Assembly: GCA_000092065.1 (NCBI GenBank)
Contig: CP000589.1
Strand: one strand, 5' to 3'
From: Ostreococcus lucimarinus
Taxonomy: Eukaryota
DNA: 64,000 nucleotides
Shown here: positions 19,163 through 57,301 of the stretch, one piece after another
Layout of the letters: every line of letters begins with the position of its first letter
Position numbering within the stretch: the stretch's first letter is position 1
Position numbers and translations under genes: made by a program
The notes under the pieces: model-generated
Database searches by the model: none
Told to the model about the DNA's origin: nothing
What the model saw: the letters and a program-made list of their open reading frames with translations, nothing else

Positions 19163-21364
19163 TCAAGCGCCCGCGGGACGAGCTGACGAGCAACGGAAAC
19201 ACGTCTGGCGCGAACTGAAGCAATGCGCGGAACAGCTCCCACAGATCCAATCCCCACTTCTGAAGTTTTCCGTCTGCGGACCGCCGTCGCGAGAACCTTC
19301 GGACTGCGGCGGAGCTTCGTTGCCCGTCTTCGCGTTGCTGCACTTGAAACAATGATCACGCGACTGAAAATTGTGCGCGGAACAGCTCCCACAGATCCAA
19401 TCCCCAGCACGAAACACGCCAGCTCCCGGACCACCCGCTTCCGAGCTCGCCTTGGACGTCCCGCCCGGCGGCGAAAAGCTCCCTTCCGCGCCTTCGTCTT
19501 TGCCTCTTTTACATCGAAAGCACGAATTTCGGCTCGCGAAGCAATGCGCGTTGCATCGAGCACACGTCCAATCGCCCGGTCGCCGCGCTCCTTGCGGCGC
19601 AGGCACCTCTGAAGACGTCGCCGCCGGAAAATTCTCCTGCGCCGGCGCGCCACCGGCGACGCGTAACCCCAACCACGCAAACGTCAGCGTTAGGTACGGC
19701 GTCCCCGACGGCGCGTTCACGTTGGCGATGGGATCAAGGTGCAAAGCCAATGGAGCGATACGCAACAACCCACTCGCGGCATCGACGCCGCGCTCGCGCA
19801 CCGAACCGACCACGACGCAACTCCCAGTGTTGCTGTGACCCATGGCGCCTACGACGGCTTGATTCACCGGCGCACACACCAAACGCACGTTCGCTCCTTG
19901 GTTCGAAACGACGACCGGCGTGCTTTCGATATCAGCCAACAGGTGCGTGTCCTGCACGATCTCCAACCGAGCCCCTTTGCTCAATCGCGCGCCGAGCTCA
20001 GCCGCGAGACTTGTGCCGTACGGATTCGCCACGCGATCCAACATTGACAAAAACCGCGCCGACCCGACGTTGGCGAGCGTCGATTGCATCATGTTCACCA
20101 GAGGCGCCAAACGCTGCGACCAAGCCGCGGCGTTTTGAGGACGCACGGCGTGTCCACCCGTCAGACTCGTGCATAAAATTCCCGAACCCTCCGCCCCAGA
20201 CGTGAGTTGTTGAAACACGCTGAGTAGTTGCTCGGGCGTCTCCACTTGCATCGATGCCACACCGCCGCCACCGTGCGGCGTCGGGTGCGAAGACACACCT
20301 GCAGCCGCACGCTGCGCGAAGGACCCGCCCGGCGGCGTCGGCGGCGGAACAGCCGCCACGGGCGTGACGGTGGGACCCACCGCCGCTGGTGCCGCCGCTG
20401 AGTGCGCCTTCATCGCCCCGATCGCGCTCGCGTACGAAGGCGGCGCCGCAGCCGCCGCAGGCGCCATAGCCGCTCGCTGCGGTGGCGGCGTGCTCGGCAT
20501 CGGAGGCGCCACCGGCGCCGCGGGCGCCGCCGCGCCGACGCTCGCCGAAGCCGGCGCCGCGCCGAACGCCGCCGTCCCGCTCGAAGCCGCGCCGGACCCG
20601 AAGCCACCACCCCCAGTGGAAAACGACGACACGCTTTCAAACCCACCGAACCCACCACCCAAGCCGAGCCCTAACCCGAGGTTCAACCCGAGCCCCGGCC
20701 CGAGGCCCCCGCCCAAGCCGCCGCCGTCGCCCGCGCCGCTCATCCCCGTCAGCGCGATTTGCGGATTCGGAAACGGATGCGCCTCCTCGCTCAACTGCAC
20801 GCTCACGCATCGCAGCTCCGGCAGCAGCGTCCGCTGTCCCGCGAGGGACTCAGACAACCACGCCGCGAACCCCGCGGCGTCCGTCCCCGCGAACCGCCCC
20901 AGCGTAATCAGTTGCTGATCGGGCCGCTGACTCGCGTAATACGTATCCGCCCCCGGCAACGCCGCGCTCAGCGCCTGCGCGATCCTCAACGACGCGGGAC
21001 AATCGATCCCGACCAACACGCACCCATTCTGCATCACTTTACACTTCGGCAACACTCGCCCGGACGCCGGTCCGTGCGCGCTCGCCACGCGCCGCAGCGC
21101 CTCCGTCACGCCTTCGCCTCCCAAGCCCGTGCCTTCGAGCCCAGACACGAGCGCCACGTGCGGCGGCGCGCATCCCATCCCTATCATCGAGTCCGCGGTC
21201 CCGCGCGTCGTCAGTCGTCCGAGATCGCGCGCGCGCGTTCGATTCTTTCGCCAATTCTCAAAACTCGCGATCGCATCATCGATCGCATCATCGCGCTTCT
21301 CGCGCTTCTCCCGTCGTCTCGCGCGTCCTTCGTCGCGCGAGCGCCGCGCGAGACGCGCACGCAC
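19163..21364 (-). CDS. RanBP2-type zinc-finger protein with Gly/Ala/Pro-rich FG-containing low-complexity region
   Basis: Three C-terminal RanBP2 ZnF units (GDWTCARCNAHCFASRNSCFRC, GDWICGSCSAHNFQSRDHCFKC, GDWICGSCSAHCFSSRQTCFRC). The central region (GLGGGLGPGLGLNLGLG...GGFGGF...GGFGSG) is low complexity. The N-terminal domain is unassigned and the start is uncertain. Confidence 0.6.
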   Translation of the reverse strand: MRARLARRSRDEGRARRREKREKRDDAIDDAIASFENWRKNRTRARDLGRLTTRGTADSMIGMGCAPPHVALVSGLEGTGLGGEGVTEALRRVASAHGPASGRVLPKCKVMQNGCVLVGIDCPASLRIAQALSAALPGADTYYASQRPDQQLITLGRFAGTDAAGFAAWLSESLAGQRTLLPELRCVSVQLSEEAHPFPNPQIALTGMSGAGDGGGLGGGLGPGLGLNLGLGLGLGGGFGGFESVSSFSTGGGGFGSGAASSGTAAFGAAPASASVGAAAPAAPVAPPMPSTPPPQRAAMAPAAAAAPPSYASAIGAMKAHSAAAPAAVGPTVTPVAAVPPPTPPGGSFAQRAAAGVSSHPTPHGGGGVASMQVETPEQLLSVFQQLTSGAEGSGILCTSLTGGHAVRPQNAAAWSQRLAPLVNMMQSTLANVGSARFLSMLDRVANPYGTSLAAELGARLSKGARLEIVQDTHLLADIESTPVVVSNQGANVRLVCAPVNQAVVGAMGHSNTGSCVVVGSVRERGVDAASGLLRIAPLALHLDPIANVNAPSGTPYLTLTFAWLGLRVAGGAPAQENFPAATSSEVPAPQGARRPGDWTCARCNAHCFASRNSCFRCKRGKDEGAEGSFSPPGGTSKASSEAGGPGAGVFRAGDWICGSCSAHNFQSRDHCFKCSNAKTGNEAPPQSEGSRDGGPQTENFRSGDWICGSCSAHCFSSRQTCFRCSSARPAGA

Positions 21365-21595
21365 CCGCTCGCGGTTCGCTCTGCGCGATGAACTGCCCCT
21401 CGAACGCGCTGCCGCGGTGCCACTGCAGCGCCTGCGCGAGATGCGACACCGCGTGTTCGCTCACGTCGTCGAAGCGCAGGCGCGCGTACGCGTGCGCGCC
21501 GAGCGCGTCGCTCGACATCGCGCGTCGCGCGTCCTCGCGGCGCGGTGCTCGCGCGTTCGCGCGTCGCGCTGTGCGGCGTCGGCACTCTCGCGCGC

Positions 21596-24500
21596 ATGGC
21601 GACGTTCGACGCGCGCAAGGCGCTCGAGCGCGACGCCGTCGTGCTCGGCGACGCCGAGGCGAGCGCGAGGGATCGCAGTCGCGCCGGACGCGTGGACGCG
21701 CGGTGCGAGGCGATCGTGCGCGAGGTGTTCGCGTCGGATGATTTCTTCACGACGAGCTCGTGCTCGGGACGCGTGAGCGTGTTCGCGGAGCGCGGACGCG
21801 GGAAGCGCGAGGGCAAGGGCGAGGGCGGGACGTGGGCGTACGTGTCGCACGAACCGGCGCTGGGCGAGGCGGTGGCGGCGGCGGTGCGCGCGCACGCGGG
21901 GGAGGGGGAGGAGGGCGACGGCGACGGCGAAGGCGGCGGCTGGGCGAAACCGACGCTGACGCTGCGGTTTGAACCGTTCATATTAGCGGTCGAGGCGCGG
22001 GATTTAGACGCGGGAGAGGCGTTCGTGCGGTGCGCGCGAGAGTGTGGGTACAGGGAGAGCGGGATCACGGCGAGTGAGAAACGGGTGATTTGCGCGGCGC
22101 GATGTCAGCTTCGGTTGGACGCGCCGGTGGTGGTGGACGGCGAACGCTTGGTGAGCGATGAGGGGTTGGAGACGCTCGTGCGGTTGGCGAACGAGAAGTT
22201 TCAAGTGAACGCCGATCGAATGGAGCGGTTTCGGGAGGCTTTTAACGCGATGTGCGCGAAGAGGGCGGCCGCGAAGGCGGGGCCGAGCGACGAAGGAGGC
22301 GCGCTCAAGTGCGTCGAGGCAAAGAAGCAAGTCGCGAAGGCTGTGAAAGACGCGCTGAAGCGGGGTGGGTGGTTAGATAACGCCCGTAGATCTGCGACGA
22401 AGAAGAACGACGTGGGTGACGTGGAGTGCGTGATTTTACCCATCAAGCGCGGCGCGGAGACGGCGATTTCCTCAACCGTGACTTCGGACGCAAAGCTCGT
22501 GTTGGCGGCGATTGAAGCGGGAGACGTCGTCGTGTGCGACGACAGCGGGCACGTAAACGGTGGTCTTGGTCTGATGTCTGCGAAGAAGACGCAGAATCCA
22601 GTGACGCAAATGAAACAAGAAGTGGCGGCGATGCTTGAGGCCAAAGGCTTAAATGTCAACTTGGCGCAAGAAGCGCCGACGCGCTGGGAAAAGTTGGGTG
22701 ATTTGGTGTTGCTTCCCGCGAACGCGTTTACGGCGAGCGACTTTAGCGCGTTCGGTGCCGAGTTGTACGCCTGTGTGGCGCGAGTTCTCGGCGCATCGCG
22801 CGTTGCGCGCCAAGCGCCGGTGAGCCAAGGGCCAAAGCGCGAATCTCGCGCGGTGATGCTTTACCCCGAAGGTGCCGATGGTTGGGTCGAGACGAAAGAG
22901 CTCGGCGTAACGTATGGATTAGATGTCACGAAAGTTATGTTTAGCAGTGGTAACGGCACGGAGAAAAACCGCATGGGCGCGGTCGGCGCAAACGGCGAAA
23001 CCGTCGTGGACCTGTTCGCTGGCATCGGTTACTACACTTTGCAGTTACTCAAGAACGCGGGCGCGGCCAAGGTGTACGCGTGTGAGTGGAACCCTAATAG
23101 TTGCGAAGCCTTGCGTCATAATCTGCGCGTGAACGGCGTGGAGTCACGGTGTGAAGTGTTAGAGGGCGACAATCGTCGAACCGCGCCGACGGGCGTCGCC
23201 GATCGCGTCTTACTAGGATTGCTCCCGCACGCTGAGATGTCGTGGGAAACCGCGATTAAAGCGCTGAAACCGAAAGGTGGGGTATTACACGTGCACTCAA
23301 ACGTTAACAGTGGCGATGAGGACGAGTGGATGGTGCGTTTGGTGAGCGAGCTGAAGTCACTGGCCGAGACGAACGGTCGCGGCGATTTAGACATCGTCGT
23401 GGAACACCTCGAGCGCGTGAAATGGTACGGTCCGCGCATTCGACACGTCGTGTGTGACGTTCGCTGTACCAGTCGAACGCATAAAGATGACCTCGCCGCG
23501 ACGCGAAATATGGCCCCGAAAAGCGCTGTCTTGGCGAGACAACCTGCGAGGACGTCGGGAACGAATGTGAGACGCGTTCATCGTCCGTTGCCCGCGGACT
23601 TCAAGAACACGATCGCCGCGCAGCGCGTCCCGGCTGTCATCAGTGGACTCGATATCGGCCAAGCGCCGTGGACGTGGACGCCAAGTTATCTGGCTTCCCT
23701 CGACGGCGTTCCAGAGAAGCTTGTGAGCGTTCACGTCAGTCGTGATCCCAAGCTGGACTTCGTGCGCAAAAACTTCAAATACGTCGTGATGCCTTTTGGT
23801 GAACTACTGGCGAAAGTGAACGATGCGAGCGATGACAATTTCTACTATTTGCGAAGCATTGGGGAGAATCCGCGAAAAGAGCCGGCGCACGCGCTTCTAC
23901 AATTCCCATCGTTTGCGCGCGATTTGAAACTTCCGAGCGAGTTTTGGGGATCCGAAGACAACTACTTCAGCGCCGTCGTTCGCGTGAGCAGTGGCGATTT
24001 ACAGCTCTGGACGCATTATGACGCCATGGATAACATGTTGATTCAGCTTCATGGCGAGAAGCGTGTGCTTCTGTTCCCACCGTCCGTGTCAGGCGACTTA
24101 TATCTTGAAGGTTCGTCATCCGTCGTCCGCGACGTGGACGATCACGATCGAGAATCGTTCCCACGATTCGCGCGCGCTCGAAAAGCGGCGTTGGAAGTCA
24201 TCTTACAACCAGGTGACGTATTGTACATCCCCGCGCTTTGGGCGCACCACGTCACCGCCTTGCACGGCCCGTCGATTGCGCTCAACGTATTTTTCCGACA
24301 CCTCCCCACGAGTGGATACCCATCGAAAGATTTGTACGGGAACGCCGACCCAATCGCGGCTGCGAGTGCGCTCAAATCAATAAACTCCGCGATCGAATCC
24401 TTGAAAGAGTTGCCGCTAGATTACCGTGTATTTTACGCTGGCGTCGCAGCGGCGAGACTGGAGAGTGAGCTTGGCGTCGAATCCGCTCGAAGAGCGCTTG

Positions 24501-24631
24501 CAACGGTGAACGACGACACGCCGAAATCGCGCGGGATGAATTCGCGCGCAACAAAAGGTACAGGCGTGGTCGGCACAGTCTTATCTGCTCTTGCATGCCT
24601 GCTCATTACACGCCGCGCTTCGCGGAAGTGA
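21596..24631 (+). CDS. TYW3/TYW2/TYW5: tRNA wybutosine-synthesis fusion protein: TYW3 - TYW2 (Trm12-type methyltransferase) - TYW5 (JmjC hydroxylase)
   Basis: The N-terminal part matches TYW3 (FFTTSSCSGR, FEPFILAVEARDL, GITASEKR). The middle matches TYW2 (VVDLFAGIGYYTL, VYACEWNP, ADRVLLGLLP). The C-terminal part matches TYW5 JmjC (YYLRSIGENPRKE, LQLWTHYDAMDNMLIQLHGEKRVLLFPP, DVLYIPALWAHHV, LKELPLDYRVFYAG). The tail is hydrophobic (GVVGTVLSALACLLITRRASRK). Start at the ATG at 21596. Confidence 0.85.
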   Translation: MATFDARKALERDAVVLGDAEASARDRSRAGRVDARCEAIVREVFASDDFFTTSSCSGRVSVFAERGRGKREGKGEGGTWAYVSHEPALGEAVAAAVRAHAGEGEEGDGDGEGGGWAKPTLTLRFEPFILAVEARDLDAGEAFVRCARECGYRESGITASEKRVICAARCQLRLDAPVVVDGERLVSDEGLETLVRLANEKFQVNADRMERFREAFNAMCAKRAAAKAGPSDEGGALKCVEAKKQVAKAVKDALKRGGWLDNARRSATKKNDVGDVECVILPIKRGAETAISSTVTSDAKLVLAAIEAGDVVVCDDSGHVNGGLGLMSAKKTQNPVTQMKQEVAAMLEAKGLNVNLAQEAPTRWEKLGDLVLLPANAFTASDFSAFGAELYACVARVLGASRVARQAPVSQGPKRESRAVMLYPEGADGWVETKELGVTYGLDVTKVMFSSGNGTEKNRMGAVGANGETVVDLFAGIGYYTLQLLKNAGAAKVYACEWNPNSCEALRHNLRVNGVESRCEVLEGDNRRTAPTGVADRVLLGLLPHAEMSWETAIKALKPKGGVLHVHSNVNSGDEDEWMVRLVSELKSLAETNGRGDLDIVVEHLERVKWYGPRIRHVVCDVRCTSRTHKDDLAATRNMAPKSAVLARQPARTSGTNVRRVHRPLPADFKNTIAAQRVPAVISGLDIGQAPWTWTPSYLASLDGVPEKLVSVHVSRDPKLDFVRKNFKYVVMPFGELLAKVNDASDDNFYYLRSIGENPRKEPAHALLQFPSFARDLKLPSEFWGSEDNYFSAVVRVSSGDLQLWTHYDAMDNMLIQLHGEKRVLLFPPSVSGDLYLEGSSSVVRDVDDHDRESFPRFARARKAALEVILQPGDVLYIPALWAHHVTALHGPSIALNVFFRHLPTSGYPSKDLYGNADPIAAASALKSINSAIESLKELPLDYRVFYAGVAAARLESELGVESARRALATVNDDTPKSRGMNSRATKGTGVVGTVLSALACLLITRRASRK

Positions 24632-24683
24632 GACGCGACTCAGCTCAGCCTAGAATGATGAATAGATCTATATAGCTACCTAT

Positions 24684-25520
24684 CTAGCGCGTACTCGCCT
24701 TCAAAATATCGATAATGTGCTTCAAGAGCACTGGTGTCGTCTCTGGAATTCCACCCATGATCGGGAAATCGCTCAACAACCCTTTACCTCTGTAGTAATT
24801 CTCCACCGGAATCGTCGACTTTTTGTACACCTCCAATCGCGCGCGAACGACTTCCTCCGTGTCGTCCGGTCTTTGGGTGAGCTTAGCGAAGCACTCCTGC
24901 GGTGGATTCAGCGGAGGCATAATAATCGTTTGCTCTCCCGCCTTTTCGCTTCTGATGTCGGCGATATTAAACGACTTCCCGCACTCCCCGCACTCTCTCC
25001 GTCCGCAGCACTTTTCCACCAAAATGTCCTCGCGAAGCGTCAAATTCAACACCTGCGTCACTTCCACCATCGTGCTAAGCGTCTCCGCCTGCGGCACCGT
25101 TCGAGGGAATCCATCTAACAAAAATCCTCGCTCACCCTCCGCCTCGCCGCGCTTGACGCGCTTGTCGAGGATATCCAGCACCAACGCGTCCGGGACGAGT
25201 TCGCCTCGCGCCGCGATGGCTTTCATCTCCTTCCCGAGCGCCGTCTCCCCCTTGATCTCCGCGCGAACGAGATCACCCATGGATATGTGCGGCACGCCCA
25301 TCTGCTTCGCCATTCTCGACGCGTACGTGCCCTTGCCGACGCCGGGAGCGCCCAAGAAGACCCAGTTTAGCTTTTTGCCTTGCTCGAGCACGCCGTCGCA
25401 CGTCGACGCGAGTTCGTCGCGCAGCGCGTCCACGGCAGCGCCCGTGGCGTCGAACGGGGTCGAGGCATACTTTCTAGAGAGCGCACGCGCGGTGACGACG
25501 GAAAGACGCCGCGCGAACAT
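24684..25520 (-). CDS. ADK: adenylate kinase with organellar presequence and Cys-rich LID insertion
   Basis: P-loop GAPGVGKGT, the FLLDGFPRT NMP-binding motif and an ARLEVY C-terminal segment. The LID carries CCGRRECGECGK...QEC. The N-terminus MFARRLSVVTARALSRKYAS is presequence-like. Confidence 0.85.
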   Translation of the reverse strand: MFARRLSVVTARALSRKYASTPFDATGAAVDALRDELASTCDGVLEQGKKLNWVFLGAPGVGKGTYASRMAKQMGVPHISMGDLVRAEIKGETALGKEMKAIAARGELVPDALVLDILDKRVKRGEAEGERGFLLDGFPRTVPQAETLSTMVEVTQVLNLTLREDILVEKCCGRRECGECGKSFNIADIRSEKAGEQTIIMPPLNPPQECFAKLTQRPDDTEEVVRARLEVYKKSTIPVENYYRGKGLLSDFPIMGGIPETTPVLLKHIIDILKASTR

Positions 25521-25772
25521 GATGGGCGCGGGAAAGATTATGGCGACTCGCTCGGCGGCTCGGGGCCACGAAACATCCGGGACGAACGCGCGGGACGCCG
25601 GCCGCGCGCCGGCGTCGGCCGCGCGCCTTGAGTGGACAACTGGGGACGCTGATGTTACAAACGAATAATGAACAATGAATATTGGCGAGGCGCGCGCGAC
25701 GGTTCGCGCGGCTCGAAAGAATGACGAATATTAGCGCCGCGCTCGCGACTGGCGAAAAACGCCGATTCGACG

Positions 25773-30664: not shown

Positions 30665-30870
30665 GGCGCGCGTCGTCGTGTCGCGTCGCGTCGCCGGCGA
30701 TCGCGATCGCGGTCGAGTCTCGGTGTCGGTTCGAGTCACCACACGGATCATTACGTCGTTTGAGACTGTGTACCACACGGACGACGACCGCGCGACGCCG
30801 GACGCGACGCCGCGCGCGCCAGACGACGGCGCGCGGGCGACGGCGGCGCGCGAGGTCGCGCGCGCGCGCG

Positions 30871-33585
30871 ATGACGTCGTCGTCGATCGACGACGCGCTC
30901 GACGTGCGATATCGCTGCGTGGAGACGACGACGCGACGCGATGAAGATTCAAACGCGCGGGAAACGTCAACCGTCGCGACGCGCGATTTCGAACGCGCGC
31001 GCGCGCTGATGGCGCGCGTCGGACGACGAGGGGCGCGCGACGCGCGAACGATCGTCGAGGACGCGTCGACGGGAGATGGGCTCGCGCGGACGATCGCGGC
31101 GGCGGCGAAGCGAGGGATGGAGCGAGGCGAGGACTGCGCGACGATTTTCGCGCGAGGCGCGGGCGACGACGACGCGGACGCGGCGCGAGCGGTGCGGGAG
31201 ATGGGAGCGGTGGCGATGGTGGTGGATGCGATGGTGGAGTCGTGCGAGGGGATCGATCGGGGGAAGTGGGAGGTGAGCGCGACGTGCGTGGGGTGGTCGA
31301 CGAGGGAACGGGCGGGCGGCGGCGCGGTGGATTTGTTGGACGACGCGTCGGCGGGGGACGAGGGGGCGGGAGTCGGGCGAGGGATGACGGTGGTGCACGT
31401 GGAACGCGCGGAGGACGGAGTTGTGGCGTTTGAGAGCGCGATGGCGCGCGCGGATGAGGTGTTTCGCGAAGGTGCGTCGACGACGGGGCGGCACGCGGTG
31501 TTTACGTTACGCTTGAAGTTGTGGGCGGAGGCGACGACGGAGACGGATGACGAGAGCGGGCTCGCGAACGAGCCCACGGTGACGCGCGTGCACTTTGTGT
31601 TTTTGGCGCCGTACGTGCCGGCGCCGGGGGCGTTCGATGGGCGAGACAGTCGCTCGGTGGCGGCGCGCATCGAGTGCACAAAGTCGACGACGGCGATGAT
31701 GGCGGTGCTGCGCGGTTTGCGGCGAAATCAGGGGCAACGAGGGACGACATTTCGCAACTTGAACGCCTGGCGGGAATCACCCCTCACGCGTTTGATGTGG
31801 GCGAGCGGGATGTCGGAACTTCGAAGCGCCATGCTCATCGTTCTTTGCTCGGACGCGCTGCGATACGCCGTGGAGGGTGACGAAACGTCGCCTCTCGTGT
31901 TGGCACCCGGGACCGAGGGCGCGTTGAAATTCGCGTTACAACTCAAGGAACATTCGGATGATGGCGATCCCGCACCGAGAACGCGTGCGCCTCCGGTGCC
32001 CACGCCTACGAAGAATTCGAACGCGCGCGGTAGCGGTCGTGGAATGAAGACGTTGCGCGCGGAAGCGCCCCCGTCGACATCCGCGGCGGCGCGGCAAAGG
32101 CAACCGACAGCGGCACCGCCCGCGACGCAACCCAATCGCGCGTCGGACGTCGCTGCCTCAACAAACGGAAACATTACGAACGAACAGATCGACGCTATCG
32201 TGCGCGTCATCCGCACGCACTCGAGCGGGCTCGCGGGACGTCGTATGGAGAGCACGATTCGAAATTTGAGCGCCGAATGGACGCGAATGGCCAGCGCGCA
32301 CGAAACGATTCTCGAAGAGTTCTCCGTGCTCGAAGACCAACTTTTAGCTGCGCAAACTCGTGAAGACGAGGCGGTGCAATATGCCGAACAAGTCGCCGCT
32401 GATCTCGCGGTGACTTCGAGGTGGTGCGAGACGCTCGAAGCGGAGCAAGCGAGCGCAAAAGCGCTCGCGGAAAAGGCGGCGAAGGATGCGGCGCGAGTAG
32501 CTGAAACGCGTGCCGTGGAGTTGGAGAATCGCATCAAGGAATTAGAACTAGAGCTTTTGCGTAATTCTGTGCCGGAAATGGAGCGTACGCGAGATGAAGC
32601 GGAGAAAGCAGCGCGAGAGGCGCGCGAAAAGTATCAAGAAGCGCACGATCAACGCGAGAGCGCTTTGGAGGCGCTGGAGAACGAAACCGCCGCCAAGCGA
32701 GAGTTGATGGAGCAAGTCGCCACCTTACAGCGTCAATTGGAAGATGTGGAACGTGTCCGCGCGAACGATCGGGCGGAAATCGATCGTACTCGCGAAGAGC
32801 TACGTGCTCGATACCAAGCGGAGAAAGACTCGCAAGATCGCTTCGCCAAGGCACAGAGAGAACACGAATTGGAGCTGAAGACGGCGCGCGAAGCAGTCGC
32901 AGAACGCGAGGATCAGTTGATTAAAATGCGTCGTGATCGCGACGACGTGCTGCACAAGCTACATCTCAAAGAAGAGGAAGTCGTCGAGGCGCGAGCAAAC
33001 ATGCGCGCGAGTTTATTAAACGTCGAGGCGCTGCAGACGGCGACAAATGAAGCCAAAGAGACGCGGCAAGCTTCAAACAAGGAACTCGAAGACCTCAGGT
33101 TATGCAACTCCGACTTGCTCGTTCAAGTCAAGCACGCAAAGCGAGAGCTCGAAGACACATCGGTGGCCCTGAACAAACTGACAGAGAAATTACAAGACCT
33201 CGAGGACGGATCGGAGAGTGCGATTCGCAAACGCCGAGAAGCTGAGGATGAGATTCACGATCTCAAGCACTCCATAATCGATCTCGAAGCCAAGAACAAG
33301 GCACTTGAAATGGACCGCGAGGTGGCTTATCAAGCCGCCGACGTGGCGCGCACGGAGAACGCGAAGGTTTCGGCGTCTGTTTTGGATCTGACTGAGGAAG
33401 TCGCGCGACTCAAATCCGCCCTCGTTGCGGCTCAAGATTCCACGCGCGCGCTTCTCGATGAAGAAGCCGCGCGGTTACAACGACTCGCGCCAACGGTTCA
33501 AGATAGCGATTACGTCAGTCCGGCGTGGTTACATGATAATAGCTGGCAGCAGCCGAGCGTAACGCTTGTATCGTCGTCCTCGTAG
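30871..33585 (+). CDS. kinesin-like protein with a degenerate (predicted ATPase-dead) motor domain plus about 550-aa coiled-coil tail
   Basis: The N-terminal 330 aa keep the kinesin motor scaffold, but every catalytic motif is changed. The P-loop TIFAYGQTGSGKT becomes TIFARGAGDDDAD. Switch I SSRSH becomes TTGRHAVFTLRL. Switch II LVDLAGSE becomes VFLAPYVP. The neck-proximal LTRLM...MLIVLCSDALRYA is retained. A long ELK/R coiled coil follows. Confidence 0.55.
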   Translation: MTSSSIDDALDVRYRCVETTTRRDEDSNARETSTVATRDFERARALMARVGRRGARDARTIVEDASTGDGLARTIAAAAKRGMERGEDCATIFARGAGDDDADAARAVREMGAVAMVVDAMVESCEGIDRGKWEVSATCVGWSTRERAGGGAVDLLDDASAGDEGAGVGRGMTVVHVERAEDGVVAFESAMARADEVFREGASTTGRHAVFTLRLKLWAEATTETDDESGLANEPTVTRVHFVFLAPYVPAPGAFDGRDSRSVAARIECTKSTTAMMAVLRGLRRNQGQRGTTFRNLNAWRESPLTRLMWASGMSELRSAMLIVLCSDALRYAVEGDETSPLVLAPGTEGALKFALQLKEHSDDGDPAPRTRAPPVPTPTKNSNARGSGRGMKTLRAEAPPSTSAAARQRQPTAAPPATQPNRASDVAASTNGNITNEQIDAIVRVIRTHSSGLAGRRMESTIRNLSAEWTRMASAHETILEEFSVLEDQLLAAQTREDEAVQYAEQVAADLAVTSRWCETLEAEQASAKALAEKAAKDAARVAETRAVELENRIKELELELLRNSVPEMERTRDEAEKAAREAREKYQEAHDQRESALEALENETAAKRELMEQVATLQRQLEDVERVRANDRAEIDRTREELRARYQAEKDSQDRFAKAQREHELELKTAREAVAEREDQLIKMRRDRDDVLHKLHLKEEEVVEARANMRASLLNVEALQTATNEAKETRQASNKELEDLRLCNSDLLVQVKHAKRELEDTSVALNKLTEKLQDLEDGSESAIRKRREAEDEIHDLKHSIIDLEAKNKALEMDREVAYQAADVARTENAKVSASVLDLTEEVARLKSALVAAQDSTRALLDEEAARLQRLAPTVQDSDYVSPAWLHDNSWQQPSVTLVSSSS

Positions 33586-51563: not shown

Positions 51564-52142
51564 CTATTCATCTTCTTCTTCTTCATCACCGTCGCCACCG
51601 GCGGCCGCAGCCATGCGCTTTCTCTTGACGCGACCCGGTCGACCGCCGCCCAACGGAGAGTTGAGCGCGAAGTCGATGTGCTTTTGGCTGTCCGTGCGCA
51701 CCAAAAAGCTCGGCACATTCACGATTTGCTTACCGACGCGGATGTGACGTTGACGAATCAACACACGCGCGTGGTGCACAGACTTCGCCAAGCCAAGCTT
51801 GAAGACGAGCGTCTGCAAGCGGCGTTCCAAGAATTGCTCCGGCCCGAGCGCCAAGACGTAATCGAGCTTGTCCTGCGTCTCGTCCAACAACCCATAGTTG
51901 CGCATGCGTCGCATGATGGCCTCGCCTTCGAAGATTCGCTTCGGGTCCTTCTCATCGAGCGTCAACAAAACGCGCGCCGCGTTACGAAGCTTGTTCAGCG
52001 CGAATTGCACGCGCCACAACTCGCGCTTGTTGCGCAAGCCAAACTCACCGACGATCTTCAACTCGGCATCCAAACGTTCCTTCTCGAACGGACGTCTCGG
52101 CTTCTTGAACGTCTTCCCGTCTGCGCGCGTACGAAAATACAA
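51564..52142 (-). CDS. RPS9: 40S ribosomal protein S9 (uS4); 5' end incomplete in this model
   Basis: ...[44 protein letters not shown]... is collinear with RPS9. The open frame has no ATG before these codons (the track uses TTG) and a TGA lies just upstream. A short 5' exon is therefore likely but could not be placed in phase (nearest ATG at 52195). Confidence 0.8.
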
Positions 52143-52776
52143 ATCACAGTCAGTCTTTCATTCCCTCTCGCACTCGCGCGTCGTTCCACGTCGCCATCGC
52201 GACGCCGACGCCGCGTCCGCCCGCGCCGACGGAAACCCCACGCGACCCGCGTCGTGGCGCGAACATCCCCACCCTCGCCGCCTCCGAGCGCGCCGCGCCC
52301 CGTTCGCCGCCCGCGAACGCGCGATCGCAAATGTTTCCATCGTCCCACGCCATCGCATCGCCCGCCCGCGCATCGCCCGCGCGCCCGCGCGTCGCATCGC
52401 TCGCTCCCGCGCCAAAGCCCTAACGATGCGATCGATCGACGCGCGCGCGCGTCGTCCTCGCGCGTCGCGCGCGCGCCGCGTCCGCGCGTCGCGCGCGCCG
52501 TCGCATCGCTCGATACGCGCACGTACAGTTACGGTAGTAGGTGGACGACGGCATCTTGCGGCTGTCGCGTCACGAAGAGACGGACCGCGCGCGCGCGCGC
52601 GCGAGGTTCGGTCGGCCGCGCGCGGCGAGTCCTCGACGCTTTGAGTCGCGAACCGTCGATTTCACGGGTCACGTATTTTATGGATGAAACGCCCATGTGC
52701 GCGAAAGTAAACGGATCGCCCGGTCGGTCGCCCGACCGGGCGGTTGGGCAGTCGACGACGCGTCGGCCGCGTCGCC

Positions 52777-53682
52777 ATGGCGACGTGCGGCGTCGCCGCG
52801 CCGAGGGCCGTCGTGGACGTCGTCCTGAGCCGCGAGCAGGGCGAGGGACGCGGCGCGCGCGTGCGGCGATCGATCGGCACGGCGCGCTTGAAGCACTTCG
52901 ACCCATTCGTGATGCTCGACGAGTTCAAGGTGGCCACGCCGGCGGGGTTTCCCGATCACCCGCACCGCGGGATGACGACCGTGACGTACGTGCTGCCGAA
53001 TGCGGGGAACGGGTGCGTGGAGCACGAGGACAGCGTCGGGAACGCCGGGATGCTGCGACCCGGGGATCTGCAGTTCATGACGGCGGGACGAGGGATTTTG
53101 CACGCCGAGGTGCCGGAGAACGAGACGACGTGTCACGGGTTGCAGCTTTGGGTGAATTTGCCGGCGAAACATAAGATGGACGCGCCGGAGTATCAAGAGC
53201 TGCGAGCGAGCGAACTGCGGGAGGCGTCGAAGGACGGCGTTCGCGCCGTCGTCATCGCGGGCGAGGCGTTCGGGGCGGAGAGCCAGATTCGGACGAAACA
53301 AGCGCCCATGCATTACATTCACTTCACCATGTCGCCGTCGTCGCGGTTGGTGCAAAACGTGCCCGAAGGTTGGAACTGCTTGGCGTACACGCTGCGAGGA
53401 CGCGCGGATTTCGGTCGCTGCGAGGACGTGGACGCGCACAACACGGTGACGTTTAGCAATGAACCCGGCCAAGACGGCGTCGTGGTGCAAACGACGAGCG
53501 AAAGCGCGGAGTTCGTGCTCATTTCCGGGCGCCCCAACGACGAACCGATCGTCCAGCACGGACCGTTCGTGATGAACACGCGAGAGGAAATCTCTCAAGC
53601 GTTCGCCGACTTTCAGGGCGGCAAGAACGGCTTCGAATCCGTTCGAGGTTGGCGAAGCGAGATTCAATACCGAACGCGATAG
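52777..53682 (+). CDS. PIR: pirin (bicupin)
   Basis: N-terminal cupin with the GFPDHPHRGMTTVTYVL His motif, then a C-terminal cupin. Start at the ATG at 52777. Confidence 0.8.
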   Translation: MATCGVAAPRAVVDVVLSREQGEGRGARVRRSIGTARLKHFDPFVMLDEFKVATPAGFPDHPHRGMTTVTYVLPNAGNGCVEHEDSVGNAGMLRPGDLQFMTAGRGILHAEVPENETTCHGLQLWVNLPAKHKMDAPEYQELRASELREASKDGVRAVVIAGEAFGAESQIRTKQAPMHYIHFTMSPSSRLVQNVPEGWNCLAYTLRGRADFGRCEDVDAHNTVTFSNEPGQDGVVVQTTSESAEFVLISGRPNDEPIVQHGPFVMNTREEISQAFADFQGGKNGFESVRGWRSEIQYRTR

Positions 53683-54633: not shown

Positions 54634-57204
54634 TTAAAACGAAATCAGATCGTCGTCTACTGACACGGCCGAGACAGAAGTTTCACTCGCTTTGGATTCT
54701 TCGCGCATTCGCTTGGACAATTTTCGGATGTGATCCTCCACGATCGAGATCGCTGCCTGTAGCTCGGGATGCGTGACAAATTTTCGCCCGTAATCCAACG
54801 AGTTTGCGCTGCGCGGAATGTGCATTTCTGCGTTTTCGGAACCAAATTTATTGAAGTCGCGCAGTGTCTGCGTCTCCATCTTTGTGCAACGATCGTCGAC
54901 GTATGTGCGAAGCTCAGTGAGCGTACGTTTCGTCTTGCTGCGTTCAACTTTGTCCCACTCGATACTCTCTTGCATCGCTTCGACACGCTTGGAGACATCG
55001 TCAAAGAGCTCACGGACCGTTGACGTCGACGGTCGATCCTTGATGGTGCGTTCCATGCTCTCATGCATGCTGTGAATGATGAGATCCTGCTCTTCTTGCT
55101 TTCTCGTCAAGTTTGCGATGCGAGACTGCATTGATCCCGACTGTTCGGAATACGCTGACACCGAGTACACTTCAAGGTGCGTCAACTTGCTAGGCGTGCC
55201 CAAAGGCGAGCCCGCGGGGGAGTAGGCGTATTCGCTGCGCGCGCCACCGACGCCGCCGAAGACGGCGTCTTGGATCATCATCAACTCCTTTCTGAACTCG
55301 TTCGTCGAACGGTCGGACGCGAGGCGCAGCTCTTCGCGCAAATCTCTCTCCACAGCGGCAACAGCATGGTTTAGTCTCTTCTCTACCGTTTGGAGAGCGA
55401 CGGCTTGCGCCTCGGCGTTTGGTTTGGCCGCCTGCCTCTCGAGTTTCATCGACACCTCGCAAGATTCCACGCGAAGCTCACTCGCAGCGACGCGCGCCTC
55501 AAATCTCTCGAACCGTTCATCTAACCGATCGATTCGCGTCTTGTGTCCCGCATCCGTGATGCCACGCGTCGCCTCGGCTTCACCCAACACGCGCTTCATC
55601 GCCCTGGTGTGCTCCTCGGAGACCTTGGACAACATGTCGACAGAATTCTTCTCGCTTCCTCTCAAAGCCGCGATGCTTTCCTCGCGTAATTCCGCGAACG
55701 ATGTGAACTGATTGTTGATCCACTGTTTTAACTCATCCGCGCGTTCCGACGCAGCCTTCATTTGATTCACGCTCGAGAGTACGCTCTCCTTGAACGCGTT
55801 GTTTTCGTCATCCGCTTTGCGCATCGCCTCTTCCGCGAGCGCGACGCACTTTCGCGTCTCTTGTGCGGCCCGCTCGGCGTTTCGCGCGGCGGCGCTATCC
55901 GTCGACGACTCAATTTCTCGAATTCGATATTCCATGACTTCTGTCACGGCTGATTCAGCCTTTTGGGTGACTTTCTCCACAACCTTTGCGCCCCACTCCT
56001 TGAGCTGAGACGACAAAACTTCGCCTTGCTCCTGTACCAAGCTCGCGTGTTGCTCAGCCGTCGATGCAATTTCATCGCCCAACGTCCCGATACGCTGGAC
56101 GTCCTTCTCTATGCGATCGATAGTTTGCTGGCCTCGAGACTCGATGCGTTCGACAAAGTCATTTGCCATCGATTCCATCTTCTCCGTCTGCGCCAACGCT
56201 TCTTTGAACCGCGCATACGTCTGGTCGACGTGCTCACATCGATCGTGCACTCGCTTAGCATCCTCGGCACAATCATCACTCAAACGCTCCATGGAATTCG
56301 CGAGCTCGCGCACCTCGAGTAGAGCCTCGCTGACGGTGTTGGCGTCTTGCGAAGCGCGCGCCGCACGCGCCTTCACGATTTCCAACTCGCTCGCGATGGA
56401 CGGCACGTCCGCCGCAGCGAGTGACAGCGCAGTTTGATTCGCCTTTAGTCGCGTCTCCTGCACTTCAACCTCCAACTCTCGCACGAGCGTGGTGACGTCT
56501 GACATCTCGCCCGCCATGGTCTCCAGTCGAGCGTCCACGGCTTTCGCCGCCGCCGCCGCGCCCTCCGTCGCCTTCACACTAATCTGCGTCTCGAGTTCAA
56601 ACAAGTCCACCGCTACCTTACTCGCCGTTGACGCGTGCAGCGTCTCCAGCGCCGCCAAGCGATCGAGCGTCGCCGCGTGTATCGCCCTCGACGCTTGCAA
56701 CTCCTCTCGCAGCGCGTTCGTCGCGTCCTCCAGCGCCTCCACCCTTCGTTCCGCCGCCTCGTGTCTCGCCTCCGCCAGCTCCAACTTCAGCGCGTCGACC
56801 TCCGATCGCGCCGCGTTCGAAGCCACGATCGCCGTTTCCGCGCCAGCGCTCATCGAGCGCGTTCTCAGCGCCTCCAGCTCCGCGCGCGTCGCCTCGGCGC
56901 CGCGCTCGTGGCGACGCAGCACGTACGCCATTCCCTCAAACGCCCTCCGCACGCACGGTCGCACGCTCTGCCAGTCCCGTTCGCCCTTGACGACGTCTTC
57001 GACGCGCATGAAGTCATCCACGGTGAACACGCGTCGCGTCGTCGCGTCCGCGCGCGTCGGCGTCGCGTTTTCGTTCGCCGTTGGCGAATGCGATGTCCCG
57101 CGTCGCGCGGCGTCATCGCGTCTGGGCGTCGCGCGCGCGCCCGGCGTCGCGCGCGCGCTCGGCGACGCCGCGGGCGACGCCGCGGGCGTCGTCTCCGCCG
57201 ACAT
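54634..57204 (-). CDS. long coiled-coil protein (about 850 aa), unknown function
   Basis: About 700 aa of heptad-rich E/A/R/L sequence with no recognisable domain. Start taken at the ATG at 57204 (MSAETTPAAS...); the upstream ORF codons are Arg/Ala-rich. Confidence 0.45.
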   Translation of the reverse strand: MSAETTPAASPAASPSARATPGARATPRRDDAARRGTSHSPTANENATPTRADATTRRVFTVDDFMRVEDVVKGERDWQSVRPCVRRAFEGMAYVLRRHERGAEATRAELEALRTRSMSAGAETAIVASNAARSEVDALKLELAEARHEAAERRVEALEDATNALREELQASRAIHAATLDRLAALETLHASTASKVAVDLFELETQISVKATEGAAAAAKAVDARLETMAGEMSDVTTLVRELEVEVQETRLKANQTALSLAAADVPSIASELEIVKARAARASQDANTVSEALLEVRELANSMERLSDDCAEDAKRVHDRCEHVDQTYARFKEALAQTEKMESMANDFVERIESRGQQTIDRIEKDVQRIGTLGDEIASTAEQHASLVQEQGEVLSSQLKEWGAKVVEKVTQKAESAVTEVMEYRIREIESSTDSAAARNAERAAQETRKCVALAEEAMRKADDENNAFKESVLSSVNQMKAASERADELKQWINNQFTSFAELREESIAALRGSEKNSVDMLSKVSEEHTRAMKRVLGEAEATRGITDAGHKTRIDRLDERFERFEARVAASELRVESCEVSMKLERQAAKPNAEAQAVALQTVEKRLNHAVAAVERDLREELRLASDRSTNEFRKELMMIQDAVFGGVGGARSEYAYSPAGSPLGTPSKLTHLEVYSVSAYSEQSGSMQSRIANLTRKQEEQDLIIHSMHESMERTIKDRPSTSTVRELFDDVSKRVEAMQESIEWDKVERSKTKRTLTELRTYVDDRCTKMETQTLRDFNKFGSENAEMHIPRSANSLDYGRKFVTHPELQAAISIVEDHIRKLSKRMREESKASETSVSAVSVDDDLISF

Positions 57205-57301
57205 GCGCCGCCTCGACGCGCCTCGACGCGAGTCGCTGTCTGCGGTCGCGGCCGCGCGCCCAACGGCCGCGATCGCGACACCGCGACGCCGCGCCGTCGG
57301 C

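Follow-up and report, generated by a model that had tools for sequence, protein, structure and literature searches.

A fused TYW3-TYW2-TYW5 gene of a green picoalga encodes a conserved C-terminal tail that resembles a membrane anchor

In a 64,000-nucleotide stretch of Ostreococcus lucimarinus DNA (hereafter the window), one gene joins three enzymes of wybutosine (yW) synthesis. Its product is very likely a chlorophyte TYW3-TYW2-TYW5 fusion that carries out three consecutive steps on tRNA-Phe and ends in a tail whose most probable role is that of a membrane anchor. The locus is an ordinary nuclear gene, intact and made of a single exon, from a compact, GC-rich green picoalga. On the + strand, its reading frame opens with a GTG at 21545, has its first in-frame ATG at 21596 and runs without interruption until 24629-24631, where the translation meets its sole stop. 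The ATG at 21596 (MATFDARK...) is the start common to the homologues P0002, P0006 and P0015. An earlier sequence-only reading had proposed a single 1011-codon ORF with TYW3, TYW2 and TYW5 in this order, and both the translation and a Pfam search (TYW3, 3e-55; TYW2 MTfase, 4e-34; Cupin_8, 4e-40) bear this out. The junctions fall at approximately 22250-22640 (TYW3/TYW2) and 23492-23560 (TYW2/TYW5); that reading had put them near 22500 and near 23500, of which the second agrees with our data whereas the real first junction is slightly upstream. The features of the gene are as follows.

21596..24631, + strand: complete, single-exon TYW3-TYW2-TYW5 fusion gene, 1011 codons plus stop (ORF listing and translation)
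21653..22246, + strand: TYW3 domain, aa 20-217, predicted N4-methyltransferase acting on yW-86 (Pfam PF02676, 3e-55; Taw3 structures 2drv/2qg3)
22307..22864, + strand: TYW2 N-terminal region, aa ~238-423, small alpha/beta domain (Pfam PF25133, model and invariant columns)
22892..23467, + strand: TYW2 Rossmann domain, aa 433-624, predicted SAM-dependent aminocarboxypropyl transferase (PF02475, Taw2 structures)
23492..23560, + strand: disordered TYW2-TYW5 linker, aa 633-655 (pLDDT <50, AlphaFold2 model)
23579..24508, + strand: TYW5 JmjC/cupin domain with C-terminal helical bundle, aa 662-971, predicted hydroxylase (3al5 match, Cupin_8)
24512..24565, + strand: flexible tether, aa 973-990, linking the terminal helix to the folded TYW5 domain (pLDDT <50 at 973-991)
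24566..24610, + strand: putative tail-anchor helix, aa 991-1005 (predicted helix 991-1008, KD19)
24611..24628, + strand: basic C-terminal RRASRK, aa 1006-1011, net charge +4 (dibasic outer-mitochondrial-membrane motif test)

The conserved, membrane-anchor-like tail is apparently the only undescribed feature of this gene; no description of the tail of the algal fusion was found in the searchable literature. The last 22 residues are GVVGTVLSALACLLITRRASRK, exactly those which the sequence-only reading had singled out as looking like a tail anchor. The helix VVGTVLSALACLLIT has a GRAVY of 2.39 and a muH of 0.19, and mean H is 0.64-0.69 for residues 988/990-1005. The KD19 value of the tail, for the segment starting at aa 987, is 1.60, exactly the classical threshold, and the next best value in the protein is 1.26. 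The uncharged run comprises 15-18 residues, with Gly, Ala, Ser and Thr abundant, and the additive Hessa-scale dG of the 19-mer is +3.7 kcal/mol. Neither a second hydrophobic segment in the KD19 scan nor an N-terminal signal was found in the fusion protein, which has no hydrophobic leader at the first ATG; this agrees with the layout expected of tail-anchored proteins, a single hydrophobic segment within ~30-40 residues of the C-terminus. Only one of the 76 ATG-ORFs of the window has a tail of this kind. In the AlphaFold2 model, the predicted terminal helix (991-1008) has a pLDDT of ~60 and stops three residues before the end.

The character of the tail is conserved in close relatives. All 37 close-clade proteins contained a flexible linker, an uncharged hydrophobic helix of 11-23 residues and a basic end (net +1 to +4), and the tether is part of a clade-specific extension of 45-95 aa. 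The sequence of the tail diverges among these proteins while its character is retained. Many relatives have a Trp at the hydrophobic/basic boundary (…VAW-RR, …HVW-RRS). By comparison, none of 16 distant fused algal proteins had the tail. In one subgroup, P0021-P0031, the uncharged core is only 11 residues, a length at which a plain helix would not cross a bilayer. In the metagenomic contig L003 the hydrophobic run is 12 residues and the gene is frameshifted, but this contig looks error-prone.

We lean modestly towards the view that, only in Mamiellophyceae-type picoalgae, the fusion gained a genuine tail anchor, which would bring three wybutosine steps to the cytosolic side of an organelle or ER membrane; with N-terminally anchored TYW1, most of the pathway could possibly be located there. 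In this clade the chain continues past the TYW5 domain as a flexible tether, then as a helix of ~15-18 residues with moderate hydrophobicity, and finishes in a short dibasic end; we infer that this tail most likely tethers the catalytic body to the membrane. It is also possible, if rather unlikely, that the helix is a soluble element, such as a small-xxx-small oligomerisation helix, a helix docking on another protein (e.g., TYW1), or a signal for degradation or quality control. Its Gly/Ala-rich composition, its borderline hydrophobicity (KD19 1.60, positive additive dG), the 11-residue cores of P0021-P0031, which are below bilayer span, and the pLDDT of ~60 would all fit such a role, and TYW5 was crystallised with several chains per entry. 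However, the layout is that of a canonical tail anchor, in which an apolar, non-amphipathic helix (muH 0.19) is followed by 2-4 basic residues at the extreme C-terminus past a disordered tether. The boundary Trp of many relatives is typical of membrane interfaces, and free sequence drift with kept character is expected of a lipid-facing segment rather than of a specific protein interface. Moreover, tail anchors in the outer membrane of mitochondria (OMM) are typically short (<21 residues) and only moderately hydrophobic (PMC4154396). The tail-anchor reading was strengthened by clade conservation and by predicted structure, although the hydrophobicity itself remained borderline, and it is a reasonable prediction that the three-enzyme module may be held on a membrane by its tail. 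Because Ostreococcus is transformable, this idea can be tested.

The body of the protein consists of three domains, and the order of the yW pathway described previously (PMC5311493) suggests that they would act in succession at G37 of cytosolic tRNA-Phe. The TYW2 domain would add the aminocarboxypropyl group (imG-14 to yW-86), the TYW3 domain would carry out N4 methylation (yW-86 to yW-72), and the TYW5 domain would hydroxylate the side chain with Fe(II), 2-oxoglutarate and O2 (yW-72 to OHyW-72). The AlphaFold2 model (mean pLDDT 84.5) contained three confident domains and disordered linkers at 633-655 and 973-991, and its pTM of 0.42 implies no fixed packing between the domains. Three independently folded, catalytically competent domains on flexible linkers would provide three consecutive steps in one polypeptide. 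Fusion would keep the active sites at 1:1:1 and near each other, so that the anticodon loop of a bound tRNA could pass from site to site.

The TYW3 domain belongs to the TYW3/Taw3 family by both profile and signature, which predicts N4-methylation. The PF02676 match scored 187.3 bits (cut-off 27), with aa 20-217 aligned to profile positions 10-210 of 211. Residues essential for TYW3 include a (S/T)xSSCxGR motif, an N-terminal Asp and a His (PMC5311493); the window protein has the signature TTSSCSGR at aa 52-59 (21749-21772) together with Asp34 and His85, both of which were nearly invariant in our alignment.

Two regions make up the TYW2 part. The N-terminal region (pLDDT 80-92 in the AlphaFold2 model) contains the invariant residues A247, K251 and K255 and matched TYW2_N_2 (PF25133) at aa 350-423 with 27.7 bits, equal to the cut-off of 27.7. 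The Rossmann domain matched TRM5-TYW2_MTfase (PF02475) at aa 433-571 with 118.3 bits (cut-off 28; E 4e-34) and has the SAM motif DLFAGIG at aa 472-478 (23009-23029), beside which CEWNP, GDNR and ADRVLLG are conserved. Structure matches were better to Taw2 (PH0793/MJ1557, 1e-26 to 2e-29) than to Trm5b (1e-17) or aTrm5 MJ0883 (3e-11), which places the domain nearer to TYW2/Taw2, with the Trm5 m1G37 methyltransferases more distant, and predicts aminocarboxypropyl transfer. Plant orthologues of the window protein bear the name TYW2/3/4.

The TYW5 domain matched Cupin_8 at aa 666-905 (4e-40), and JmjC_2 was also matched. Human TYW5 (3al5) was recovered at 3e-70 / 6e-71 over 289 residues (aa 662-950), whereas the next JmjC structures (JMJD5, FIH) reached only ~5e-12. 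Based on the roles of human TYW5 residues in Fe(II) and 2-oxoglutarate (2-OG) binding (PMC3045595), residue mapping assigned the Fe(II) triad to H807/D809/H884 (human His160/Asp162/His235) and the 2-OG ligands to Y751, N813 and K822 (human Tyr106/Asn166/Lys175). The domain is orthologous to characterised TYW5 and not to other JmjC-only proteins, and hydroxylation of yW-72 is predicted.

It is very improbable that any of the fused domains is a remnant without catalytic activity, which would leave the protein with fewer than three steps to perform. The at-threshold TYW2_N_2 match could be read in this way, but all experimentally defined essentials of TYW3 (Asp, Cys and Arg of (S/T)xSSCxGR, His) and of TYW5 (HxD...H and the Tyr/Asn/Lys 2-OG ligands) are present, as are the SAM motif of TYW2 (DxFAGxG) and its flanking motifs, and the essential positions were invariant or nearly so in 29 diverse homologues. 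The sequence-only reading took the fusion to imply hydroxywybutosine. What stands is that TYW5 makes OHyW-72 from yW-72; the rest was overstated, because full OHyW also depends on TYW1 at an upstream step and on TYW4/LCMT-type chemistry at a downstream one, and neither TYW1 nor TYW4/LCMT is in the window. Specifically, neither a TYW1 (radical SAM/Wyosine_form) nor a TYW4 (LCM) domain was detected in 30 long ORFs from the window or in the genes called on L001, an independent assembly of the locus, and domain searches of the window ORFs and the L001 genes agreed with the earlier remark that no separate TYW genes lie nearby.

We regard it as hardly credible that the single ORF results from read-through or from the merging, during assembly, of a TYW3/TYW2 gene with a separate TYW5 gene, or that TYW5 is expressed separately: although gene callers gave two ORFs for the locus of L003 (96% identical), one of 715 aa with TYW3+TYW2 and one of 304 aa with Cupin_8, the split is due to one extra C at the window equivalent of 23590 (codon 665, just downstream of the TYW2-TYW5 linker), after which the sequence remains open and conserved, and other small indels occur in this contig, so that an assembly error is the simplest explanation. 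Two further assemblies, L001 and L002, were 100% identical to the window over the gene, and gene callers produced an identical 1011-aa product from each independently. One ORF was kept in more than 35 cluster representatives (39-98% identity), no stop interrupts the frame, TYW3 and TYW5 were recovered at significant scores, and the fusion is already documented in the literature (PMC2938197). A relative with ~52% identity has a complete MMETSP transcript that spans all domains and the tail, and an NCBI genome protein of a relative likewise contains the entire fusion and tail; a single transcript for the fusion gene is thereby supported indirectly. With dozens of relatives of the same architecture (34-98% identity) and this spanning transcript, the artefact explanation is effectively refuted.

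The core TYW3-TYW2-TYW5 fusion is already known, and its rediscovery adds no new biology; the exact protein of the window and many orthologues are present in public collections. Iyer, Abhiman, de Souza and Aravind (NAR 2010, PMC2938197) reported that chlorophyte algae have a JmjC domain C-terminal to a Tyw3+Tyw2 unit, and Ostreococcus tauri is among the sequences they aligned; from this fusion they predicted a wybutosine hydroxylase. The sequence-only reading considered the inclusion of TYW5 unusual, which does not hold, as both the algal TYW3+TYW2+JmjC fusion and the Rosetta-stone inference were published there. Domain set, order, green-algal lineage and Rosetta-stone logic are the same, the core is identical, and the clade-specific tail is the addition. 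In the text of that paper "transmembrane" does not occur, and "membrane" occurs once, for a TonB-class outer-membrane receptor. The importance of the fusion is mainly historical, as the Rosetta-stone link behind the 2010 prediction, and the JmjC protein was later confirmed experimentally as TYW5. Human TYW5 (C2orf60; 3al5/3al6) has the same Fe(II) triad, 2-OG ligands and C-terminal helical bundle as the window protein, but is a stand-alone soluble protein of 315 aa with neither fusion nor tail.

The window was assigned to the green-algal fusion group via its homologues. More than 45 cluster representatives, Coccomyxa, Bryopsis and Chlorokybus among them, share the fusion architecture, and P0016, P0035 and P0046 have TYW3, TYW2 and TYW5 in the same order as the window. 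Its presence in Chlorokybus suggests that the fusion is older than the chlorophyte/streptophyte split. Gene models of Edaphochlamys and Volvox contained TYW2-TYW5 with no Pfam TYW3 match. Land-plant TYW2/3/4 proteins (Marchantia P0078, rice P0080) likewise have TYW3 followed by TYW2 (38-46% identity over the shared domains), but differ in a TYW4-derived Kelch propeller between the two and have neither TYW5 nor the tail; the plant TYW3-TYW2 fusion has been cited in support of a multi-enzyme yW complex (PMC5311493). Four-module TYW3-Kelch-TYW2-TYW5 proteins of Coccomyxa and Bryopsis (P0040, P0041, P0043) contain all three window enzymes in the same order, but have the extra Kelch and no tail, ending ~50 residues past KDLYGN compared with 101 in the window protein. 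One four-module protein is named [quoted passage not shown] by NCBI. Domain comparison with the plant, Coccomyxa and Bryopsis homologues detected no Kelch propeller in the window protein, whose fusion is without this TYW4-derived module of the plant and Coccomyxa versions. TYW4-TYW5 fusions of ascomycetes (Aspergillus oryzae, Yarrowia), choanoflagellates and kinetoplastids also join TYW5 to a neighbouring yW enzyme; however, their partner is TYW4 (LCMT2 + Kelch), the step after TYW5, whereas TYW3 and TYW2 are the steps before it. Modules have thus been reshuffled within one pathway: TYW3-TYW2-TYW5, the same with a Kelch insert, without TYW5 (land plants), or TYW2-TYW5 without TYW3.

The tail itself resembles moderately hydrophobic tail anchors with a dibasic end, of the plant OMM type. 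Plant OMM tail-anchored proteins (Cb5-6, TraB, MIRO1, PMD) similarly have a TMD of <21 residues, moderate hydrophobicity and a dibasic end of 3-8 residues. The OMM dibasic motif, R/K/H-X(0,1, not E)-R/K/H-X(0,1, not E)-X(0,3) (Marty et al. 2014, PMC4154396), fits the tail of the window protein (RRASRK, 6 aa), but its definition comes from work in Arabidopsis and tobacco cells rather than prasinophytes, and only 20 of the 37 clade tails fit it strictly. Tails like the OMM class can also target the plastid outer envelope, peroxisomes or the ER (PMC4154396). Two other tRNA-modifying enzymes offer parallels. TYW1, which acts directly upstream in the yW pathway, is membrane-held by an N-terminal ER span with cytoplasmic domains, and CDKAL1, which modifies tRNA at position 37, is an ER protein with a tail anchor and a precedent for the tail. 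In both, catalytic domains exposed to the cytosol act on position 37 of cytosolic tRNAs, and one helix at an end of the chain ties them to the membrane. Unlike the window protein, both belong to radical SAM families, the anchor of TYW1 is N-terminal, and their localisation comes from experiments or established predictions, whereas that of the window tail is deduced from sequence. If the anchor reading is true, one of the smallest eukaryotic cells would have a membrane-organised assembly line for tRNA modification, and the tail, together with ER-anchored TYW1 and tail-anchored CDKAL1, would be a further case of membrane-organised hypermodification of position 37 in tRNA.

Three enzymes of the wybutosine pathway, TYW3, TYW2 and TYW5, were found in one uninterrupted reading frame in the window. 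A domain search of the translated ORF recovered all three in the order that the sequence-only reading had claimed, with both Pfam and solved structures. ORF listing and translation gave the following features:

Window, plus strand, GTG at 21545, first in-frame ATG at 21596, stop codon at 24629-24631: fusion ORF
Residues 20-217: TYW3 (Pfam E 3e-55; 187 bits versus a cut-off of 27)
Residues 350-423: TYW2_N_2 (Pfam 27.7 bits, exactly the cut-off)
Residues 433-571: TRM5-TYW2_MTfase (Pfam E 4e-34)
Residues 666-905: Cupin_8 (Pfam E 4e-40; JmjC_2 was also matched)

Counted from the ATG, the ORF has 1011 codons and its sole stop is the terminal one; the last 22 residues, GVVGTVLSALACLLITRRASRK, matched the translation, and in the alignment the start of the protein, MATFDARK, was common to homologs P0002, P0006 and P0015. 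Among solved structures, the TYW5 part was closest to human TYW5 (3al5, 3e-70), far ahead of the JmjC proteins that came next (JMJD5 and FIH, only ~5e-12). The TYW2 part matched archaeal Taw2 (PH0793, 1e-28; MJ1557, 1e-26) better than Trm5b (1e-17), and the TYW3 part matched archaeal Taw3 (PH1069 and AF_2059, 1e-10 to 1e-13). The TYW3 signature (S/T)xSSCxGR was present as TTSSCSGR (residues 52-59) together with Asp34 and His85, and the TYW2 SAM motif DLFAGIG occupied residues 472-478, with CEWNP, GDNR and ADRVLLG also aligning to Taw2. TYW5 residues were mapped through an alignment to 3al5 with a chain offset of 23: H807/D809/H884, the Fe(II) triad, correspond to human His160/Asp162/His235, and Y751/N813/K822, the 2-oxoglutarate ligands, to human Tyr106/Asn166/Lys175. 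Every residue defined as essential in the literature was thus present, and the possibility of dead domains was rejected on these grounds. An acidic Gly/Asp/Glu-rich loop in TYW3 (window 21890-21950, residues ~100-117, pLDDT <50) was hypervariable among near-identical strains (RSLMVEKMKESLRKSSS in P0001 versus DGDGEGGGWAKP in the window, and several small indels in contig L003), apparently through polymorphic indels or frame changes in GGC/GAG-rich DNA.

In the published pathway order, TYW2 (imG-14 to yW-86) is followed by TYW3 (to yW-72), TYW5 (to OHyW-72) and then TYW4 (PMC5311493), so that one polypeptide is predicted to carry three consecutive steps. This module would yield OHyW-72 as its direct product, and the earlier statement that the fusion implies hydroxywybutosine in this organism therefore over-reached without TYW1 and TYW4/LCMT. 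No TYW1 or TYW4/LCM domain was detected among the 30 long ORFs of the window (at least 330 aa) and the annotated stretch of contig L001, in agreement with the view that there are no separate TYW genes nearby.

The possibility that the fusion is a read-through or assembly artifact, which had been named as a potential refutation, was rejected because the fusion is conserved, a relative has a complete transcript of it, and independent assemblies carry the identical gene. The gene was 100% identical to that of the window in two independent Logan assemblies, in which gene callers gave the same 1011-aa product. The protein search returned 236 relatives, and in P0001-P0037 (39-98% identity) TYW2 and Cupin_8/JmjC occurred in a single protein, the sole exception being P0015, which is frameshifted and lacks Cupin_8; TYW3 was also present throughout this set apart from the N-terminally short P0034. 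All three domains and the C-terminal tail were also found in P0153 (1107 aa, an MMETSP transcript marked complete) and in P0161, an NCBI genome protein from the same cluster.

The only split version of the gene was observed in one metagenomic contig with 96% nucleotide identity to the window:

L003:6001-9040 (ENA ERZ10646527, contig_17894), equivalent to window 21596-24631: fusion locus with an extra C

In codon 665 (window-equivalent position 23590), a short way past the disordered linker between TYW2 and TYW5, this single extra C breaks the gene into two ORFs, TYW3+TYW2 (715 aa) and Cupin_8 (304 aa). The frame downstream of it is still open and conserved, and L003 contains further small indels, including 2+2+2-nt indels just before the tail, so the simplest reading is that the split is probably an assembly error and less likely a real strain-level split of TYW5.

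An AlphaFold2 model built from an input alignment of 29 sequences (mean pLDDT 84.5, pTM 0.42) contained three confident globular units and a small alpha/beta domain at the N-terminus of TYW2. Residues 633-655 and 973-991 were modeled as disordered linkers, and residues 991-1008 as a helix at the end of the protein. The low pTM indicates that the fusion would resemble beads on a string with no fixed super-structure. Such a flexible domain arrangement would fit active sites that are flexibly presented to one tRNA anticodon loop.

Several architectures were observed among the relatives:

TYW3-TYW2-TYW5: the window protein, P0016, P0035 and Chlorokybus P0046
TYW3-Kelch-TYW2-TYW5: Coccomyxa P0040 and Bryopsis P0043
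TYW3-Kelch-TYW2: Marchantia P0078 and other land plants
TYW2-TYW5 without TYW3: metagenomic group P0049-P0059

Proteins of the metagenomic group were 650-800 aa long and consisted of TYW2_N_2, TYW2 and Cupin_8, with neither TYW3 nor the tail. Chlorokybus is a streptophyte alga, and its TYW5-containing form, a single gene model, suggests that the fusion arose before chlorophytes and streptophytes separated, with TYW5 being lost on the way to land plants.

The C-terminus distinguished a close clade of 37 fused algal proteins from other fused sequences. Past the conserved KDLYGN motif, 97-154 residues remained in this clade versus 44-68 in all other motif-bearing fused algal proteins. Each of the 37 ended in an uncharged hydrophobic stretch (core of 11-23 residues, GRAVY 1.2-2.6; only 11 residues in the P0021-P0031 subgroup) followed directly by a basic C-terminal sequence with a net charge of +1 to +4, and 20 of them matched the expanded dibasic outer-mitochondrial-membrane motif as defined by Marty et al. 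2014 (PMC4154396). The character of the tail was kept across the clade while its sequence was not. The corresponding stretch of the window protein, VVGTVLSALACLLIT (GRAVY 2.39), precedes RRASRK (net +4). A chance hydrophobic tail in GC-rich sequence was rejected: among the 76 ATG-initiated ORFs that reach 150 aa across the six frames, only one in the window ended in such a tail, and it was present in 37/37 proteins of the clade versus 0/16 distant fused proteins. An amphipathic rather than transmembrane helix was excluded by the low hydrophobic moment (muH 0.19, mean Eisenberg H 0.64-0.69). The run in L003, an error-prone contig, had 12 residues.

The sequence-only reading had taken the tail for a membrane anchor. 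A conserved, clade-specific hydrophobic helix with a basic end favors this proposal, but its hydrophobicity is only borderline: the tail was the top Kyte-Doolittle 19-mer of the protein (next best 1.26), yet at 1.60 it lay exactly on the threshold, and its additive Hessa-type dG was +3.7. The terminal helix was modeled with pLDDT ~60. On balance, we lean slightly towards a real membrane anchor. According to published rules, a long, strongly hydrophobic TMD with a non-basic end directs proteins to the ER, whereas a shorter, moderately hydrophobic TMD with a basic or dibasic end directs them to the mitochondrial outer membrane, and overlap of such tails with the plastid envelope and peroxisomes is known (PMC4154396). 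Judged by these rules of TMD length, hydrophobicity and end charge, the window tail resembles an anchor for an organelle outer membrane more closely than it does a classical ER anchor. Eukaryotic TYW1, which catalyzes the step immediately upstream, is ER-associated: it spans the membrane at its N-terminus, and its domains lie on the cytoplasmic side. CDKAL1 also modifies position 37 and is an ER protein held by a tail anchor. By analogy with these precedents, membrane tethering of the fusion is plausible.

The window consists of compact nuclear DNA from a eukaryote. Composition, gene density, the fact that its relatives come from marine metagenomes and MMETSP, and the precedent of O. tauri point to a picoalga of the Mamiellophyceae, probably Ostreococcus. 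The fusion gene is closely flanked on both sides:

Window 19163-21364, minus strand: RanBP2-zinc-finger gene (733 aa), divergent, upstream of the fusion
Window 24684-25520, minus strand: adenylate kinase gene, convergent, downstream of the fusion

In the 733-aa protein, a long low-complexity middle rich in Gly, Ala and Pro is followed by RanBP2-type zinc fingers at the C-terminus (local GC up to 0.71). Its gene starts only 231 bp from the fusion ATG, suggesting a common bidirectional promoter region. The stop codons of the fusion and adenylate kinase genes are just 52 bp apart (window 24631-24684), and therefore their 3' transcript ends must overlap or abut; the pair was kept in relatives at ~52% protein identity (L001, L003, L004 and L005 compared). 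Other genes in the window encode CPSF73, kinesin, pseudouridine synthase, a WD40 protein, Ank-HDAC, WS/DGAT, a proteasomal AAA ATPase, Mpv17/PMP22, PIG-P, cytidylyltransferase, MutS, a kinase, Rad1, NUDIX, TPT, ClpP and P450. A Cys/Met-metabolism PLP enzyme (56489-58720, plus strand, E 2e-140) and S-adenosylhomocysteine hydrolase (60759-62156, plus strand, E 3e-136) are located ~32-36 kb downstream of the fusion, which itself has two SAM-dependent domains; the presence of these SAM-cycle genes on the same stretch is probably a coincidence. An Rfam scan of the window returned no match. Many antisense shadow ORFs of 100-500 aa without family matches lie over real genes in this GC-rich sequence, for example 21211-22068 (minus), 22201-22659 (minus) and 24823-25668 (plus), and are a trap for ORF-based annotation. 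Four ORFs of 498-957 aa had no Pfam match at 1e-5: 30760-33585 (plus), which is called as a 904-aa gene without Pfam matches in L001, 40820-43411 (minus), 51678-53174 (plus) and 54634-57507 (minus). These may be lineage-specific proteins, or some may be shadow ORFs.

The TYW3-TYW2-TYW5 fusion is already known and was the basis of the TYW5 prediction. A Coccomyxa protein is named [quoted passage not shown] at NCBI, and TYW4-TYW5 fusions are on record in Aspergillus oryzae and trypanosomes. A fusion of TYW2, TYW3 and part of TYW4 has been recorded in plants (PMC5311493), and Iyer et al. predicted a wybutosine hydroxylase/peroxidase from fusions of the present type (PMC2938197). The proposed Rosetta-stone link of TYW5 with TYW2 and TYW3 is thus correct but not new, having been made 16 years ago by Iyer et al. 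[quoted passage not shown] Compared with these known systems, the clade-specific, tail-anchor-like C-terminus appears to be a modest and previously undescribed addition to a known fusion.
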